Part shown: one piece after another, positions 1,791-26,582 of the stretch
Numbering within the stretch: position 1 is the stretch's first letter
Layout: every line of letters starts with the position of its first letter
Origin: a virus
Taxonomy: Duplodnaviria > Caudoviricetes
Length of the DNA stretch: 40,348 nt
IMG/VR virus record: IMGVR_UViG_3300035047_000295
Coordinates: 1-40,348 of that record
Reading direction: 5' to 3' (one strand)
The notes under the pieces: model-generated
Told to the model about the DNA's origin: nothing
What the model saw: only the letters and a program-made list of their open reading frames with translations
The model's database searches: none
Made by a program: the position numbers and the translations under genes

Positions 1791-2030
1791 TTATTCATCC
1801 TCCCCCTTTTCCGGAGTAACCCTTATTTTGTATTTTTTGTTGCCAAGCTGAACAACTTTTTCCGATCCTTTTGGGGCGTCGTGCATCATATGTCGAACCA
1901 ATGCCGACATGACATCTGCCTCTGCTTAGCGCTTGTCCAGCGCCATGGCAGGGTCCTTTACATGCCTATACAGAAAGATAGTGTCCGTAAGAGGCGAGTG
2001 TCCGATTTTTATTTTATTTAGATCCATCAT
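1791..2030 (-). pseudogene. Small phage protein interrupted by an in-frame TAA
   Basis: GGAGGT RBS. Reads MMDLNKIKIGHSPLTDTIFLYRHVKDPAMALDKR*AEADVMSALVRHMMHDAPKGSEK...GEDE, with the stop at 1926-1928. Confidence 0.6.
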
Positions 2031-2063
2031 ACCTCCCTCTCCCGCGTGTCAGATGCGCAGCCC

Positions 2064-2121
2064 CTGTAATACGCACATCACTGGTGCGGCCCTTTGCATC
2101 CAGTGTATGAGCTGATTAGCT
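2064..2121 (-). other. attC-like recombination site A (AAT/ATT core)
   Basis: Minus strand AGCTAAT-CAGCT-CAT(A)CAC-TGG(A)TGC-loop-GCACCA-GTGATG-TGCGT-ATTACAG, immediately after a stop codon. Confidence 0.7.
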
Positions 2122-2124
2122 GGT

Positions 2125-2394
2125 TTATTCCGCATTTTTGACAGCATGTAAATGGGCAATAAAATCGCTCAAAACATCCCTAAGTTTGATAGCTTTATTT
2201 ATAAAATCTTGCTCGGAATCTTCATACGTTCGGTGCAGTCTAATACCGTTATGGCAATCCTTTACTTCGATAAAAGAATCTCTTACTTCTTCCATACCAT
2301 CTTTATATTTAAGTGGTCCATCGTACACCGAGACAGATCCTGTTGAAGCTGATTCTGTAGAATTTAACCAAACCTTTTGTACATATTTTTTCAT
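2125..2394 (-). CDS. Hypothetical cassette-borne protein
   Basis: AGGAGG RBS before MKKYVQ; bounded by attC-like sites. Confidence 0.75.
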   Translation of the reverse strand: MKKYVQKVWLNSTESASTGSVSVYDGPLKYKDGMEEVRDSFIEVKDCHNGIRLHRTYEDSEQDFINKAIKLRDVLSDFIAHLHAVKNAE

Positions 2395-2454
2395 CTTCCC
2401 TCCTGATAACCGGCTGGGCCGGTTCATTAATTTATTAGCAAAGGGTTATCCCGG

Positions 2455-2505
2455 AGCTAATGTGGACATAACCGGCGTTAGTCCGGGTTAATGTCTTGAT
2501 TAGCG
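2455..2505 (-). other. attC-like recombination site B (AAT/ATT core)
   Basis: Minus strand CGCTAAT-CAAGA-CAT(T)AAC-(C)CGG-ACTAACG-CCG-GTTATG-TCCAC-ATTAGCT. The gene's TAA stop lies in the first box. Confidence 0.7.
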
Positions 2506-2781
2506 GTTAACATCAAGCAAGTGCGCAACTCCACATATTTTTCGCCCACTATAACGCTCTTTGTTGTACAGATCTGCCAACCATTCAGCCTCTTCCTTGC
2601 TAGTGCAGGCTGTAAACCTCCATCCACCTTTACCCGCGGTATGGCAAATGTTTTGCCCCCGCTTTAACACGATCCACAAATTTGCCCTGTCTTTTAACTT
2701 GGCCCAATCGTTTGATTTCTCAATGTTCCCTGCTTCGCACTCGAAACCACAGCTTTCAATTTTGTCTATAAAAGTTTCCAT
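2500..2781 (-). CDS. Hypothetical cassette-borne protein
   Basis: AAGGAGG RBS; 93 aa ORF between attC-like sites. Confidence 0.75.
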   Translation of the reverse strand: METFIDKIESCGFECEAGNIEKSNDWAKLKDRANLWIVLKRGQNICHTAGKGGWRFTACTSKEEAEWLADLYNKERYSGRKICGVAHLLDVNR

Positions 2782-2844
2782 TTCCTTCCTCCTTATAACC
2801 GGCTGGGCCGGTTCATTAATTTATTAACAAATGGTTTATCTCAG

Positions 2845-2909
2845 AGCTAATGCAAAGTTGAGCGGTGGCCCGGCTTTTTGTGCCACCCGTCTCTAACTTT
2901 TTATTGGTG
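2845..2909 (-). other. attC-like recombination site C (AAT/ATT core)
   Basis: Minus strand CACCAAT-AAAAA-GTT(A)GAG-(A)C(G)GGTGGC-loop-GCCACCG-CTCAAC-TTTGC-ATTAGCT, overlapping the gene end. Confidence 0.7.
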
Positions 2910-3345
2910 ATTCAGTTGTTTTTATGCAGCCATAGTCTTGGATATCTTCTATCCGGTTCATTATGCATGCTCCGCATAACAATCCTGCCCCTTCATTCTT
3001 GCCGTTCGGCTTGATTTTTTCCCACATATCATCAGGAACAATTAAATCTATCCCATACTTCCTACCGCAAGATTGGCAAGTGCAGCCTTCCTTTTTTGTA
3101 GGGGTCTTTATCAATCGCCACGGGCCTCCTATGCTATGCAGTTCGCCAAACTCTCTTAATCTTAAATTCTCTGTTTCTTCCAGGTTCCGCTGTAAAGCAA
3201 GGCCTAAGTTGCCATTGCCCTCAATGGTAAATGCAAAAGTATGCACAAGCCCACAGTCACAACATGCAAAATCTAATAATTCATTCTTTTTTATGTTTAT
3301 TTCGACACCTTCGCCGTCAATTATTTTTGGGTATTTTCCACTCAT
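2893..3345 (-). CDS. Hypothetical Cys-rich (zinc-binding) protein with two modules
   Basis: CCDCGLVH module, then a CTCQSC...LLCGAC module. Confidence 0.7.
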   Translation of the reverse strand: MSGKYPKIIDGEGVEINIKKNELLDFACCDCGLVHTFAFTIEGNGNLGLALQRNLEETENLRLREFGELHSIGGPWRLIKTPTKKEGCTCQSCGRKYGIDLIVPDDMWEKIKPNGKNEGAGLLCGACIMNRIEDIQDYGCIKTTESPIKS

Positions 3346-3414
3346 TTTTGTTTTCCTTGGTTCGCTCTGCGGCGCGGCCCGCAGCAGCGTTGTGATTGGC
3401 GGCGGTCATCCGCG

Positions 3415-3467
3415 AGCCAATAAGCAGTTATGCTGTTCTGTGTATCAGCCACTACCGCTTGTTATCC
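3415..3467 (-). other. Degenerate attC-like site D
   Basis: Minus strand GGATAAC-AAGCGGT...GCTG-loop-CAGC...ACTGCTT-ATTGGCT, an imperfect hairpin. Confidence 0.45.
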
Positions 3468-3504
3468 GGACAATCCGGACAATCCGGTATCCGTTTTCTT
3501 TCAG

Positions 3505-4638: not shown

Positions 4639-5283
4639 TTATGGATATATATCGTTGAAGATTACCGGCACTTTTGTTTTCAGTTCTGCCAATAACGGCA
4701 CCATCAACGCCCTAATCTGTGGATGTGCTTTTTTGGCACACCGCAGCGTAAACATATGCCGCCACTCGCGGATGTTGGCTTTGACCACGATTTCGGTTTT
4801 CAGGGAATTGGGCAGAACTTCCCTGGCTTGTTCAGGTCTCCATCCATCCTCTAATAAAGACAGATAACAACATTCAGCGTTATAACAAGCATCTAACCAT
4901 TTCAGTTCTTGTTTGGATATATTTTTAGTTCTTAATCCTTTCAAATTAATTCCGATAAGTTCATCAGAACACCACACCGGCCTGATAAACTCCATCCCGC
5001 CGTCATACTTCACATATCTCGTTGACTCCTGAGCGAAAGAACATAATCTGTGCCGCACCAGCTCATGGGTCACGCCCCTGTTGGTAATAAACCTGATAGT
5101 GATGTCTCCAAATTCAATCATGGCATGGTGGCTCCAGTCTCGCATGCGGGCCACAAATCTGGTAGCGGAATCAGATGTGATTTTGTCTTCGGATTTATAA
5201 CAGGTGCGGCCGGCCGCCTCGATGACCTGAAGCAGATTGCTCGGCAGGTTGATAATTTCATGGCTCTGGTCGATGATTTTCAT
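4639..5283 (-). CDS. thyX: Flavin-dependent thymidylate synthase (canonical)
   Basis: AGRTCYKS, HHAMIEF, the RHRx7S signature (RHRLCSFAQESTRY), AREVLPNS and ANIREWRH. Confidence 0.95.
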   Translation of the reverse strand: MKIIDQSHEIINLPSNLLQVIEAAGRTCYKSEDKITSDSATRFVARMRDWSHHAMIEFGDITIRFITNRGVTHELVRHRLCSFAQESTRYVKYDGGMEFIRPVWCSDELIGINLKGLRTKNISKQELKWLDACYNAECCYLSLLEDGWRPEQAREVLPNSLKTEIVVKANIREWRHMFTLRCAKKAHPQIRALMVPLLAELKTKVPVIFNDIYP

Positions 5284-5299
5284 TATTTTCCTTTATTCC

Positions 5300-5477
5300 T
5301 GTAAATTTAAGGTTTAGACTTAAAAATATTTTATTTTTGAGTTCATAAACAGCTGATAGAGAACTTTTTAAATATTCCTAATATATTATTATTAGGAATA
5401 TTTATACATTTTTAAATAAAGTATTTTTTGCTAAACCTTATTTTATTAAATATTTATAATAATATCAATAACTTAGA
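5300..5477. repeat. ~175 bp palindromic intergenic element, copy 1
   Basis: TAAGGTTTAG...CTAAACCTTA outer inverted repeat, internal hairpin AAATATTCCTAATA/TATTAGGAATATTT, and terminal TATCAATAACTTA. Related copies at 6731-6899 and 36220-36390. Confidence 0.85.
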
Positions 5478-6716: not shown

Positions 6717-6730
6717 TATTTTAATTCTCC

Positions 6731-6899
6731 TGTAAATTTATGGTCTTGAGTATAAAATATTTTAAAATTGAATCTATAGACAGCTGACAGAGACCGATAC
6801 AAATATTCCTAATATAATTATATTAGGAATATTTTATCCTTATTAAATGAAATATTTTTTGCTAAACCTTATTTTATATAATAATATCAATAACTTACA
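6731..6899. repeat. ~175 bp palindromic intergenic element, copy 2
   Basis: Co-linear with 5300-5477: GTAAATTTA...CAGCTGA.AGAGA...AAATATTCCTAATATA...TTTTTTGCTAAACCTTATTTTAT...TATCAATAACTTA. Confidence 0.85.
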
Positions 6900-6902
6900 C
6901 AA

Positions 6903-7310
6903 TTAGTAATTAGATTCAATTCTACTCATAATTTTATCGTGTATCTTATTGTACTCGTCATCAATTGTCTCAGAAGTAATTCCTGCTCCGATTAAAATAT
7001 TCATACAAAAGCATAAAACATCAATTGCTTCTTCTTTAACATACTGAGTACTTATATAAGTTTCTTGAACAGCTTCTTTATATCCAGTTTTCCACGGTTT
7101 TGAAATTAGTTTAGAAGGAGGATGAACAAGTTCTTCTGTCAGTTCCTGAACTTCATCTGATAAATGACGTAAAGTACTCCAGAAAAATTCTGCAGTTTCT
7201 TTGATAGTCGACTCGTGTTCAATTGGAAATTTTTGTTTTCCTTTTAAAACCATTAAATTTTGAAGTTCTTCATGTTTTTTAAGAATCGATTTCATTAAGT
7301 TCCTCCACAA
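6903..7310 (-). CDS. All-alpha NTP pyrophosphohydrolase (dimeric dUTPase/MazG-like)
   Basis: DEVQELTEE, KPWK and KEEAIDVLCF motifs. The true start may be the second Met. Confidence 0.8.
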   Translation of the reverse strand: MWRNLMKSILKKHEELQNLMVLKGKQKFPIEHESTIKETAEFFWSTLRHLSDEVQELTEELVHPPSKLISKPWKTGYKEAVQETYISTQYVKEEAIDVLCFCMNILIGAGITSETIDDEYNKIHDKIMSRIESNY

Positions 7311-8187
7311 GAGTATTCCATAAATTTACAAATTTTTCTCCTCCTGACATTTCTTTTCGTTCTTTTTTGTATAAAAACCACTCAGGCTTGTATTCAAAAA
7401 TATCATTTCTGGGTTTTTCAGGCATATAAATGTTAGAACTACGACCAGTGGGAACTGTTTGAACATAGAAAGAATCAGGTCGATTTACATCTATCATATT
7501 TTTTATAAATGGATATTTTTTAACAATTTCAATCCACATCTGTAAAGCAATGATATTGTCTGATTCAGGCTGAATTTGACGATCAATTCTTTGACGAATA
7601 AAATGAAGAGCATCTTTAATATTTACTCTACAATAATAATGATTTTCTAAACATCGAGGAAGAATTGTTCTTGCGTCAAGAAGAGAAACTTCATTTGAAT
7701 CAACCATATCTGCGTATAATTGTTTTGCCATTGAAACAATTTGCACATATCTTTTTGAAAATTCTTTTGAATTAAGTATTGAATTTTTTACAAGACATGA
7801 GTCGTGTCGTAAGTCTCGATCTGCTGTACAGACAGCTGAAAATGACATTGTACGATGTCTTAAAAGATGAGTTACATCTACAAGATCAATATTTGAAATA
7901 AGAAAGACTAAACCAATTGTTTCCATAGCAGAAGGCAGTAAATTTCCTTCAAAAAGATCTTTTAAAATTTGAAGTCTTTCTTCGTCTGAATACTCATCAT
8001 GAGGCTTATCTTGCCAAGTAGCAGTCCCCCATCTTGGAATGTACTCAAGAAGATCTTCAATAGAAGGTGCGTTAAGTAATTCAACAGAAATTATTTCAAG
8101 ATGCTCAAAAAAGTAAGTAACTGGAACTTCAAAATTTTTAATTTGTACTGGTAATTTAATATCAGGTAAATTTTCATTTACAGGCAT
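7279..8187 (-). CDS. Divergent ThyX/Thy1-fold protein
   Basis: THLLRHRTMSFSAVC (signature Ser replaced by Cys), ARTILP and NIKDALHFIRQR. Confidence 0.8.
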   Translation of the reverse strand: MPVNENLPDIKLPVQIKNFEVPVTYFFEHLEIISVELLNAPSIEDLLEYIPRWGTATWQDKPHDEYSDEERLQILKDLFEGNLLPSAMETIGLVFLISNIDLVDVTHLLRHRTMSFSAVCTADRDLRHDSCLVKNSILNSKEFSKRYVQIVSMAKQLYADMVDSNEVSLLDARTILPRCLENHYYCRVNIKDALHFIRQRIDRQIQPESDNIIALQMWIEIVKKYPFIKNMIDVNRPDSFYVQTVPTGRSSNIYMPEKPRNDIFEYKPEWFLYKKERKEMSGGEKFVNLWNTLVEELNEIDS

Positions 8188-23439: not shown

Positions 23440-23655
23440 TGCGTTATAACGCGTTATGTGCGTTATAACAAATTTGTCATAACGGTCTTCAACTTGATGA
23501 AGATTGTTATAAGACGTTATGTGCGTTATGCACGTTACGAAGTGAGAGAAGCAATGCAGTCCTACTTCTTACAACTTATAACGTTATGTATAATGTTATG
23601 AACTCATAACGAATTTAACGAAATGTTATGAACTCATAACGTTATGCATAACGAA
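23440..23655. repeat. GTTAT(G/A)/CATAAC-rich repeat block 1
   Basis: Many GTTATG, GTTATA and CATAAC units around the core AGTGAGAGAAGCAATGCAGTCCTACTTCT. Confidence 0.85.
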
Positions 23656-25956: not shown

Positions 25957-26026
25957 CAAAAATTGTCATTTATACAAAAATTGTCATTTATACAAAAATT
26001 GTCATTTATACAAAAATTGTCATTTA
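25957..26026. repeat. Iteron-like tandem repeat, 18 bp x ~4
   Basis: CAAAAATTGTCATTTATA three times exactly, plus 16 bp of a fourth copy. Confidence 0.95.
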
Positions 26027-26092
26027 CTTCCTGAATCTGATTCATTGCCTGAATATTATTTATTTACTAAATCATATTTAGGCAATGAACTT

Positions 26093-26348
26093 TAATCAAA
26101 TAATATACGTAATTCAAATAATATACGCAGTTCAAATAATATATTTAATTTATTTCGTAAATCATTTTCATTTCATAAATTTTAATTATTTTGTAAATCA
26201 TTTTTATTTCGTAAAAGATATTTATATCATTAATCGTATACATAATATTATACTCATTTATATCATTAATCGTATACATAATATGATACTCATTTATAAC
26301 AAAAGTTATATACATAACATGATACTCATTTATAATAAAAGTTGTATA
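26093..26348. repeat. AT-rich degenerate 18 bp and 36 bp tandem repeats
   Basis: TCAAATAATATA units, ATTTCGTAAA units, then the 36 bp unit ATTTATATCATTAATCGTATACATAATATKATACTC x ~3.5 from 26220. Confidence 0.85.
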
Positions 26349-26387: not shown

Positions 26388-26582
26388 TCTCGTAACATCT
26401 CATAACATCTAATAACATCTCATAACATCTCATAACGTTACAACGATTCGTTATGAGTGAGAGAAGTAAGGCAGTCGTGCTCCTCTCACATAACGAATTC
26501 ATAACGAATTCATAACAATCTTCAATGTTATGAAGAACGTTATGAACGTTATGAACGTTATGAACATTATGAACATTATGAC
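26388..26582. repeat. CATAAC/GTTATG-rich repeat block 2
   Basis: CTCATAACAT x5 and GTTATGAAC repeats around the core AGTGAGAGAAGTAAGGCAGTCGTGCTCCT. Confidence 0.85.

Follow-up and report, generated by a model that had tools for sequence, protein, structure and literature searches.

In integrons, the bottom strand of an attC site folds during replication, and the integrase IntI, bound at the R and L boxes, carries out an exchange of a single strand. The closest described relatives of the locus reported here come from phages and from the laboratory. In the available part of Qi et al. (2023, PMC9892861), 17 phage-borne CALINs are reported from 10,705 genomes, IntI1 recombined five of the six sites tested, and five of its phage sites listed in the supplement have AAC/GTT cores. 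According to the available part of Frumerie et al. (2010, PMC2811028), every integron characterised so far has GTT, and cassette exchange is the proposed cause. That part also gives the relative frequencies at which IntI1 recombined engineered sites: ATT against ATT reached 1, the wild-type rate, and ATT against GTT fell to 3.1–3.4 × 10−3, about 300-fold less. These values are for attC × attI in E. coli and not for a Desulfobacterota enzyme acting on attC × attC. As to the triplet's first base, it needed only to be identical in both partners, as shared homology. Cassette insertion by IntI also occurs outside integrons, where the core is very short (attG/SALIN); the accessible portion of the preprint gives its consensus as GWT (bioRxiv 10.1101/2022.09.11.507474). 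Truncated attC sites within larger mobile units are known from fused cassettes (PMC4670013), and short units without a gene from gene-less cassettes (10.1101/2023.11.21.568050), as far as the available text of these two reports goes.

The window, by which we mean the whole stretch of 40,348 nucleotides that was analysed, is an entire linear virus record that is 78% complete. It encodes a terminase, a portal, a family A polymerase, a helicase, a Sak4-like annealase, a Cas4-domain exonuclease, and two ThyX genes. The array of interest sits in a left block with 44.7% GC, versus 33.6% for the remainder of the window, and lies with its neighbouring genes entirely on the minus strand. The metagenome runs that contain window DNA are almost all from oil fields.

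This array is a genuine phage CALIN that is mobile and has a naturally occurring A/TT core (the slash marks the crossover). It behaves as an integron cassette array does, and it is neither a canonical attC cluster nor a complete integron. Its sites have attC anatomy, Desulfobacterales kinship, and a compensated core, and its cassettes stand in varied orders, with filled and empty pairs at A/TT. We consider it probable that this integrase-less phage array consists of three integron-type cassettes which are exchanged at A/TT, likely by the IntI of a host, itself likely a Desulfobacterota member, acting in trans.

Like the phage-borne CALINs of PMC9892861, the locus is an attC cluster behind small, co-oriented phage genes with no integrase. 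It differs in its AAT/ATT cores and in the visible shuffling among unrelated phages, whereas the part of that report available to us shows no cassette movement between phages. The compensated first-base change is the one in the engineered attC-aadA7-ATT and attI1-ATT sites described in the consulted portion of PMC2811028, except that those are laboratory mutants and the phage sites are natural. Phage CALINs and engineered ATT sites have already been published; for natural attC sites with an ATT core, as in this phage array, our literature search found no paper (its scope excluded subscription journals, bioRxiv supplements, and the annotation file of Qi et al.).

Site anatomy and kinship with chromosomal attC

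On the gene (minus) strand, sites A, B, and C (Table 1) each read R'' (xxxYAAT), a 5-nt spacer, L'', L', a second 5-nt spacer, and R' (ATTRxxx), and all three have the box spacing of attC (R''-5-L''...L'-5/6-R', 50 to 150 nt). Their L arms pair at 7/7, 7/7, and 6/7 positions, respectively, leaving the fourth L'' base unpaired (A in A and C, T in B) along with more bases on that arm. The bottom (plus) strands of A, B, and C, with folding z-scores of −2.6, −4.2, and −2.8, form single-strand hairpins with extrahelical L''-arm bases; D, whose R'' retains the canonical AAC, scores −0.4 and thus does not fold as attC. A structure scanner, with a threshold fixed after A, B, and C had already been seen, reported three sites in region 2000-3500, versus none in 995 and one in five of 1,000 dinucleotide shuffles, and it reported A, B, and C alone on both strands of the whole window. 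An Rfam search gave no match, and none of A to D was called as an intrinsic terminator (a GC stem followed by a T run). The boxes, the pairing, the z-scores, and the shuffles bear out the original prediction of attC-like anatomy at A, B, and C, with a non-canonical AAT/ATT core and a degenerate D.

Table 1. Positions of sites, cassettes, genes, and truncated sites in the window
Feature	Position	Strand	Details
attC site A	2064..2121	−	AAT/ATT core; 58 nt; crossover between 2070 and 2069
attC site B	2455..2505	−	AAT/ATT core; 51 nt; crossover between 2461 and 2460; stop codon within R''
attC site C	2845..2909	−	AAT/ATT core; 65 nt; crossover between 2851 and 2850
Degenerate site D	3415..3467	−	AAC/ATT core; poor fold; crossover between 3421 and 3420
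Cassette A	2070..2460	−	391 bp
Cassette A gene	2125..2394	−	89 aa; hypothetical phage protein
Cassette B	2461..2850	−	390 bp; gene 2500-2781, 93 aa
Cassette C	2851..3420	−	570 bp; gene 2893-3345, 150 aa
Truncated attC-like site, cassette A leader	2405..2440	−	fits site-B pattern
Truncated attC-like site, cassette B leader	2794..2829	−	54-nt repeat in common with cassette A leader
Truncated attC-like site, cassette C leader	3364..3401	−	partial model match 3363-3389, 10.1 bits, weak

The AAT/ATT core occurs in all six intact phage sites, namely A, B, C, and the sites E, F, and G of the phages described below. Since these six and D all lack the invariant AAC/GTT core of canonical attC, we class them as an attC variant and not as canonical members. 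Three co-oriented sites within 850 bp, with no PF00589 match in the 40-kb record, make the array a CALIN. A complete integron has intI and an adjacent attI; here there is D, which is acceptor-like, leads the array in three phages (the window, L002, and L003), and is likely an acceptor site.

It had also been claimed that the R'' closing each cassette complements the R' with which that cassette begins, and that for A and C this fit is better than with the adjacent R'. The better fit was borne out for A and C, whereas B is a tie. Among the four variable bases, the closing R'' of A, B, and C matches the own-start R' at 4, 3, and 2 and the adjacent R' at 1, 3, and 1, while G reverses the rule (1 versus 2). 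Pooled over six cassettes, the counts are 16/24 and 15/36, a modest margin.

The host set comprised 40 regions around IntI from Desulfobacterales genomes and yielded 99 AAC/GTT sites in 27 loci, as well as five scattered AAT/ATT matches, which is the level of the control cores. A covariance model trained on 40 canonical Desulfobacterales sites only ranked A (27.8 bits, E = 5 × 10−4) and B (25.6 bits, E = 1.5 × 10−3) as the top two of its 14 matches in the window. The third match, at 26488, is an AT-rich repeat; C came fourth with a weak score (16.3 bits, E = 0.15), and D was unmatched. The alignment, which is fitted to the model, shows a C-G core pair in 32 rows; the five phage rows (A, B, C, and two more copies of B) have T-A there. 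The phage sites resemble the 99 chromosomal sites in length, box spacing, bulge position, and loop motifs, and differ from them in that the latter have an AAC/GTT core and lie beside IntI; a related class, the Deltaproteobacteria-type attC, appears in the available part of Ghaly et al. (2021, PMC8352920). By this sequence comparison, sites A and B, and more weakly C, are related to Desulfobacterales chromosomal attC and homologous to bona fide attC. The earlier statement that the extrahelical base is usually C fails for these 99 sites, in which the first such base is T 40, G 37, C 19, A 3; a T bulge is ordinary here and only A is uncommon.

Of 401 Desulfobacterales-order genomes, 183 encode an IntI that scores above the cut-off, and the array DNA gave only short, weak matches to these 401. 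A narrow ATT pattern was absent from 401 genomes, versus 7/101 for its GTT twin, a weak test given that the pattern covers only 2/99 host sites. A wider ATT pattern, covering 18/99 host sites, gave 32 matches in 29 of 401 genomes of the phylum, versus 17 for the reversed control. Neither the 40 IntI loci nor 12 regions followed in 10 of those 29 genomes held a pure ATT integron; the 12 regions contained single sites and one mixed array. Half-changed and single sites (ATT, AAC/ATT, AAT/GTT) occur in a few Desulfobacterota chromosomes (L297, L298, L299, and L300). In L300 (1573-3677), a chromosomal three-site array has consecutive AAT/ATT, AAC/ATT, and AAC/GTT cores, and in L297 a lone ATT site lies behind a PIN-domain gene. 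An attC with an AAC/ATT core also lies directly upstream of IntI in L075 (5228-5280), at the contig end.

Cassette orders in other phages and in metagenomes

The site-B pattern led to two further phage contigs (L002 and L003), and a pattern made from their sites led to a third (L037). The array reads D-C-B-A in the window, D-E-B-G in L002, D-E-F-B-I in L003, and a G remnant followed by E in L037. Outside the cassettes and the D block, the four contigs have almost no DNA in common (112 to 828 bases covered per pair). L002 and L003 carry cassette B at 94% identity, the homology stops at both A/TT junctions, and the downstream neighbours of site B differ between these two phages. The sequences that follow sites D, B, E, and G have in common only ATT plus zero to four bases, and the crossover, as read from the shuffled neighbours, lies after the first R' base with a resolution of those 0 to 4 shared bases. 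Several units are found both filled and empty: E fills a junction in L037 that is empty in L002, F occurs in L003 and is missing from L002, and unit I is filled in L003, with loose ends in runs X2 and X12 that connect B straight to the post-I sequence. D is followed by a different cassette in L002, L003, and runs X4 and X7, and near-identical cassettes (94–99%) occur in new contexts with the A of the core retained.

Gene order thus varies between phages, the breakpoints lie at A/TT, and the core pair covaries, in agreement with the original prediction that attC-type cassettes shuffle phage accessory genes. These comparisons add sequence evidence for the movement of attC cassettes between unrelated phages. 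As in attG insertion (the accessible portion of 10.1101/2022.09.11.507474), the arrays end in unrelated phage sequence, which here starts with ATT, so that the first base is A and not the G of the GWT consensus. The downstream flank of the array in L037 (830-925) and at the end of L002 is the 3' tail of a frame containing an AHPQIRAL motif, which we take to be thyX-like. This suggests that the array inserted into a thyX-like gene at an ATT secondary site.

Contigs from public metagenomes offer a view of the window's own array. A joint from 2067 to 2459 omits 391 bases, the length of cassette A, in five of eight runs (six of the eight are 2020 oil-field samples, possibly from one campaign and possibly including the source); its short side is only 25 to 27 letters long, and it carries the flag "between: not known." Cassette A has other neighbours on both sides in the runs, with a contig branch at 2068, and a loose end at 2847 lies near the site C crossover. 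Among the 24 loose ends listed (there are 27 more), 14 are no more than 7 bases from a crossover. X4 and X7 have a second joint, from 2066 to 2460 with two other letters, which is off the exact cut. The order of the window is retained in run X13, and of the 15 joints listed in one contig survey, 13 lie away from the sites, so the region is mosaic by other means too. In X24, the two flanks are connected by eight other letters and the array is absent; this empty allele is not a simple excision product. Among the joints listed, all from assembled contigs, none at the sites is a circle junction or goes back.

Wider searches returned little beyond these contigs. Exact leader patterns had no match in viral contigs, blastn of the array against GenBank phages gave one chance match, and the downstream-flank pattern gave one chance match in viral contigs (L001) and none in metagenomes. 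The E/F-family pattern hit 35 loci and was real in only three (L037 and the two contigs already known), and the B-family pattern had 17 matches in GTDB genomes versus about 18 estimated by chance. None of the 92 viral loci matching a C-type ATT pattern had a convincing site, so no further phage lineages were found. One of the 17 GTDB matches, L056, agrees with the leader at 20 of 21 bases; we do not take it for the host, as the seven model matches in its genome were all AAC/GTT. We expect detectors that hard-code AAC/GTT to miss ATT arrays, and counts of cassette arrays in phages may be too low for that reason.

The recombinase and competing explanations

The original prediction that no integrase lies in the window agrees with the lack of a PF00589 match in this record. 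Its further proposal of a recombinase with altered specificity is not supported: unmodified IntI1 recombines attC-ATT with attI1-ATT at a relative frequency of 1 (PMC2811028), and a changed enzyme is therefore unnecessary. We propose instead that the host bacterium's ordinary IntI would be supplied in trans. Recombination between two attC sites would excise a cassette, which could then re-enter another phage at an ATT site during co-infection. D would probably act as a double-stranded acceptor that retains a half-changed AAC/ATT state; its bottom strand would then have a T-G wobble, which is plausible as an intermediate. As ATT × GTT recombination is about 300-fold poorer, the ATT pool is expected to be largely insulated from host GTT arrays. 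The host is likely a member of the Desulfobacterota, judging from attC kinship (with a model built on Desulfobacterales only) and one named terminase relative at 62%. The phages would thus hold in nature an ATT pool like the one engineered by Frumerie et al., and the proposal of those authors, in the part of PMC2811028 available, that GTT is kept for cassette exchange and not for chemistry becomes directly testable.

The same cassettes might be served by a dedicated enzyme, either a phage tyrosine recombinase encoded in the unsequenced part or a host IntI lineage with an ATT attI. We find this unlikely. It would fit a phage pool that is uniformly ATT next to host arrays that are GTT, and the phage records are incomplete; yet PF00589 is found in none of the four (G000 and G002-G004, which are 78, 25, 67, and 37% complete), wild-type IntI1 requires no change, and no pure ATT array stands beside IntI in the 40 IntI loci or the 12 phylum-wide regions. 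Still less probable, in our judgement, is a shuffling of units at short boundary sequences by phage recombination proteins (a Sak4-like annealase and a Cas4-like exonuclease) that would leave the hairpins as leftovers. The junctions have just three to seven bases in common, and the hairpin and bulge geometry is intact in six different site sequences. Both proteins are indeed encoded in the window, many joints lie away from the sites, and a 54-nt repeat flanks the B gene, but the breakpoints fall at ATT and not inside that repeat.

The sites could also be decayed host cassettes: ordinary GTT sites that C-to-T and G-to-A changes have inactivated and that the phage now carries passively. That both changes are transitions, that D is degenerate, and that host chromosomes contain single ATT, AAC/ATT, and AAT/GTT sites and one mixed array would all agree with decay. 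Independent decay would not, however, yield the same compensated pair in six of six unrelated sites with intact L arms, nor would it account for 94–99% identical cassettes in new contexts with the A in place, and we give this explanation very little credence. Scarcely any remains for terminator-like or chance hairpins, which their location at gene ends might bring to mind: no terminator was called for A to D, the shuffle null was rejected, and the breakpoints lie at the core.

Cargo, leaders, and the possible making of cassettes

The cargo throughout consists of small hypothetical phage proteins, probably transcribed from upstream phage promoters. The longer ORF that contains the cassette A gene had no Pfam or PHROG match; the cassette A protein had no relative among viral contigs or GenBank phages, and its look-alikes in an atlas search are unnamed viral clusters. 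The two halves of the cassette C protein match two distinct families of about 70 aa. In L003 (3396-3932), the cassette E and F genes read in frame through their long attC sites (124 to 133 nt), and the attC loop encodes a CxxC...CxxC tail.

A truncated attC leader opens four of the six intact cassettes (A, B, C, and G of L002) as a unit of about 55 to 60 bp. It runs R', 12 to 15 bases, a complementary R'', spacer, L'', loop, L', and then a ribosome-binding-like motif at the position of R'; the stretch R''-spacer-L''-loop-L' followed by this motif in place of R' is seen at the truncated site of cassette A. The leaders of A and B have the 54-nt repeat in common, a leader resembling that of C is present in L002, and a third gene in run X12 is preceded by the same leader type. 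Cassettes E and F have no truncated leader, and their own R' provides a GGAG motif ahead of the start codon. The cassette-B gene family occurs in three settings: bare and adjoining an ERF gene in L060 and L061, within canonical GTT units of opposite orientation in L058 and L059, and within ATT units. The sites in L058 (413-478 and 1276-1332) and at the end of L059 are canonical Desulfobacterales-type attC oriented opposite to the genes, and L058 and L059 part immediately past the gene-proximal TAAC.

From the truncated leaders and the three settings of the B gene family, we tentatively derive a further reading, which we hold to be possible and on balance doubtful. These phages would act as a cassette factory whose address code is their own. 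Mini-cassettes that lack a gene, are about 70 bp long, and consist of hardly more than an attC would land at A/TT beside ordinary phage genes, often at ribosome-binding motifs; a gene enclosed by two such units would become a new cassette, the upstream unit would decay into its leader, and the A core would bar these cassettes from the host's GTT integron while they use its enzyme. The evidence fits the creation of cassettes from phage genes by such mini-cassettes and is no proof of it. Cassette fusion through attC truncation is the simpler known account of the truncated leaders. Both the fused cassettes of PMC4670013, with a truncated attC within a larger mobile unit, and the short units without a gene of 10.1101/2023.11.21.568050 are similar to the leaders; as far as the available parts of these reports show, the truncated unit here differs in its length of about 55 to 60 bp, its presence in four of six cassettes, and its end in the gene's ribosome-binding region. 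Through these leaders the creation of cassettes becomes open to study, and the factory reading, if true, would expose the stages of cassette genesis, a long-open question.

Several other features of the window deserve mention. A 166-bp direct repeat (79%) lies on both sides of the DNA ligase gene, at 5297-5462 and 6728-6893, and each copy has an internal palindrome and sigma-70-like boxes. The first copy marks the boundary between the 45% GC block and the 34% GC backbone and is possibly a promoter driving the array. The ThyX-family genes are at 4639-5283, within the GC-rich block, and 7279-8187. Dense clusters of CATAAC/GTTATG repeats at 23440-23650 and 26388-26581, close to the divergence point, have a common GTGAGAGAAG motif and score weakly with the attC model; they are possibly origin or regulator sites. 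Between them, multiple AT-rich tandem repeats of 18 and 36 bp make 25957-26348 origin-like. Upstream of D, at 3464-3490, the window carries a 9-bp tandem duplication that is missing from the majority variant in most runs.
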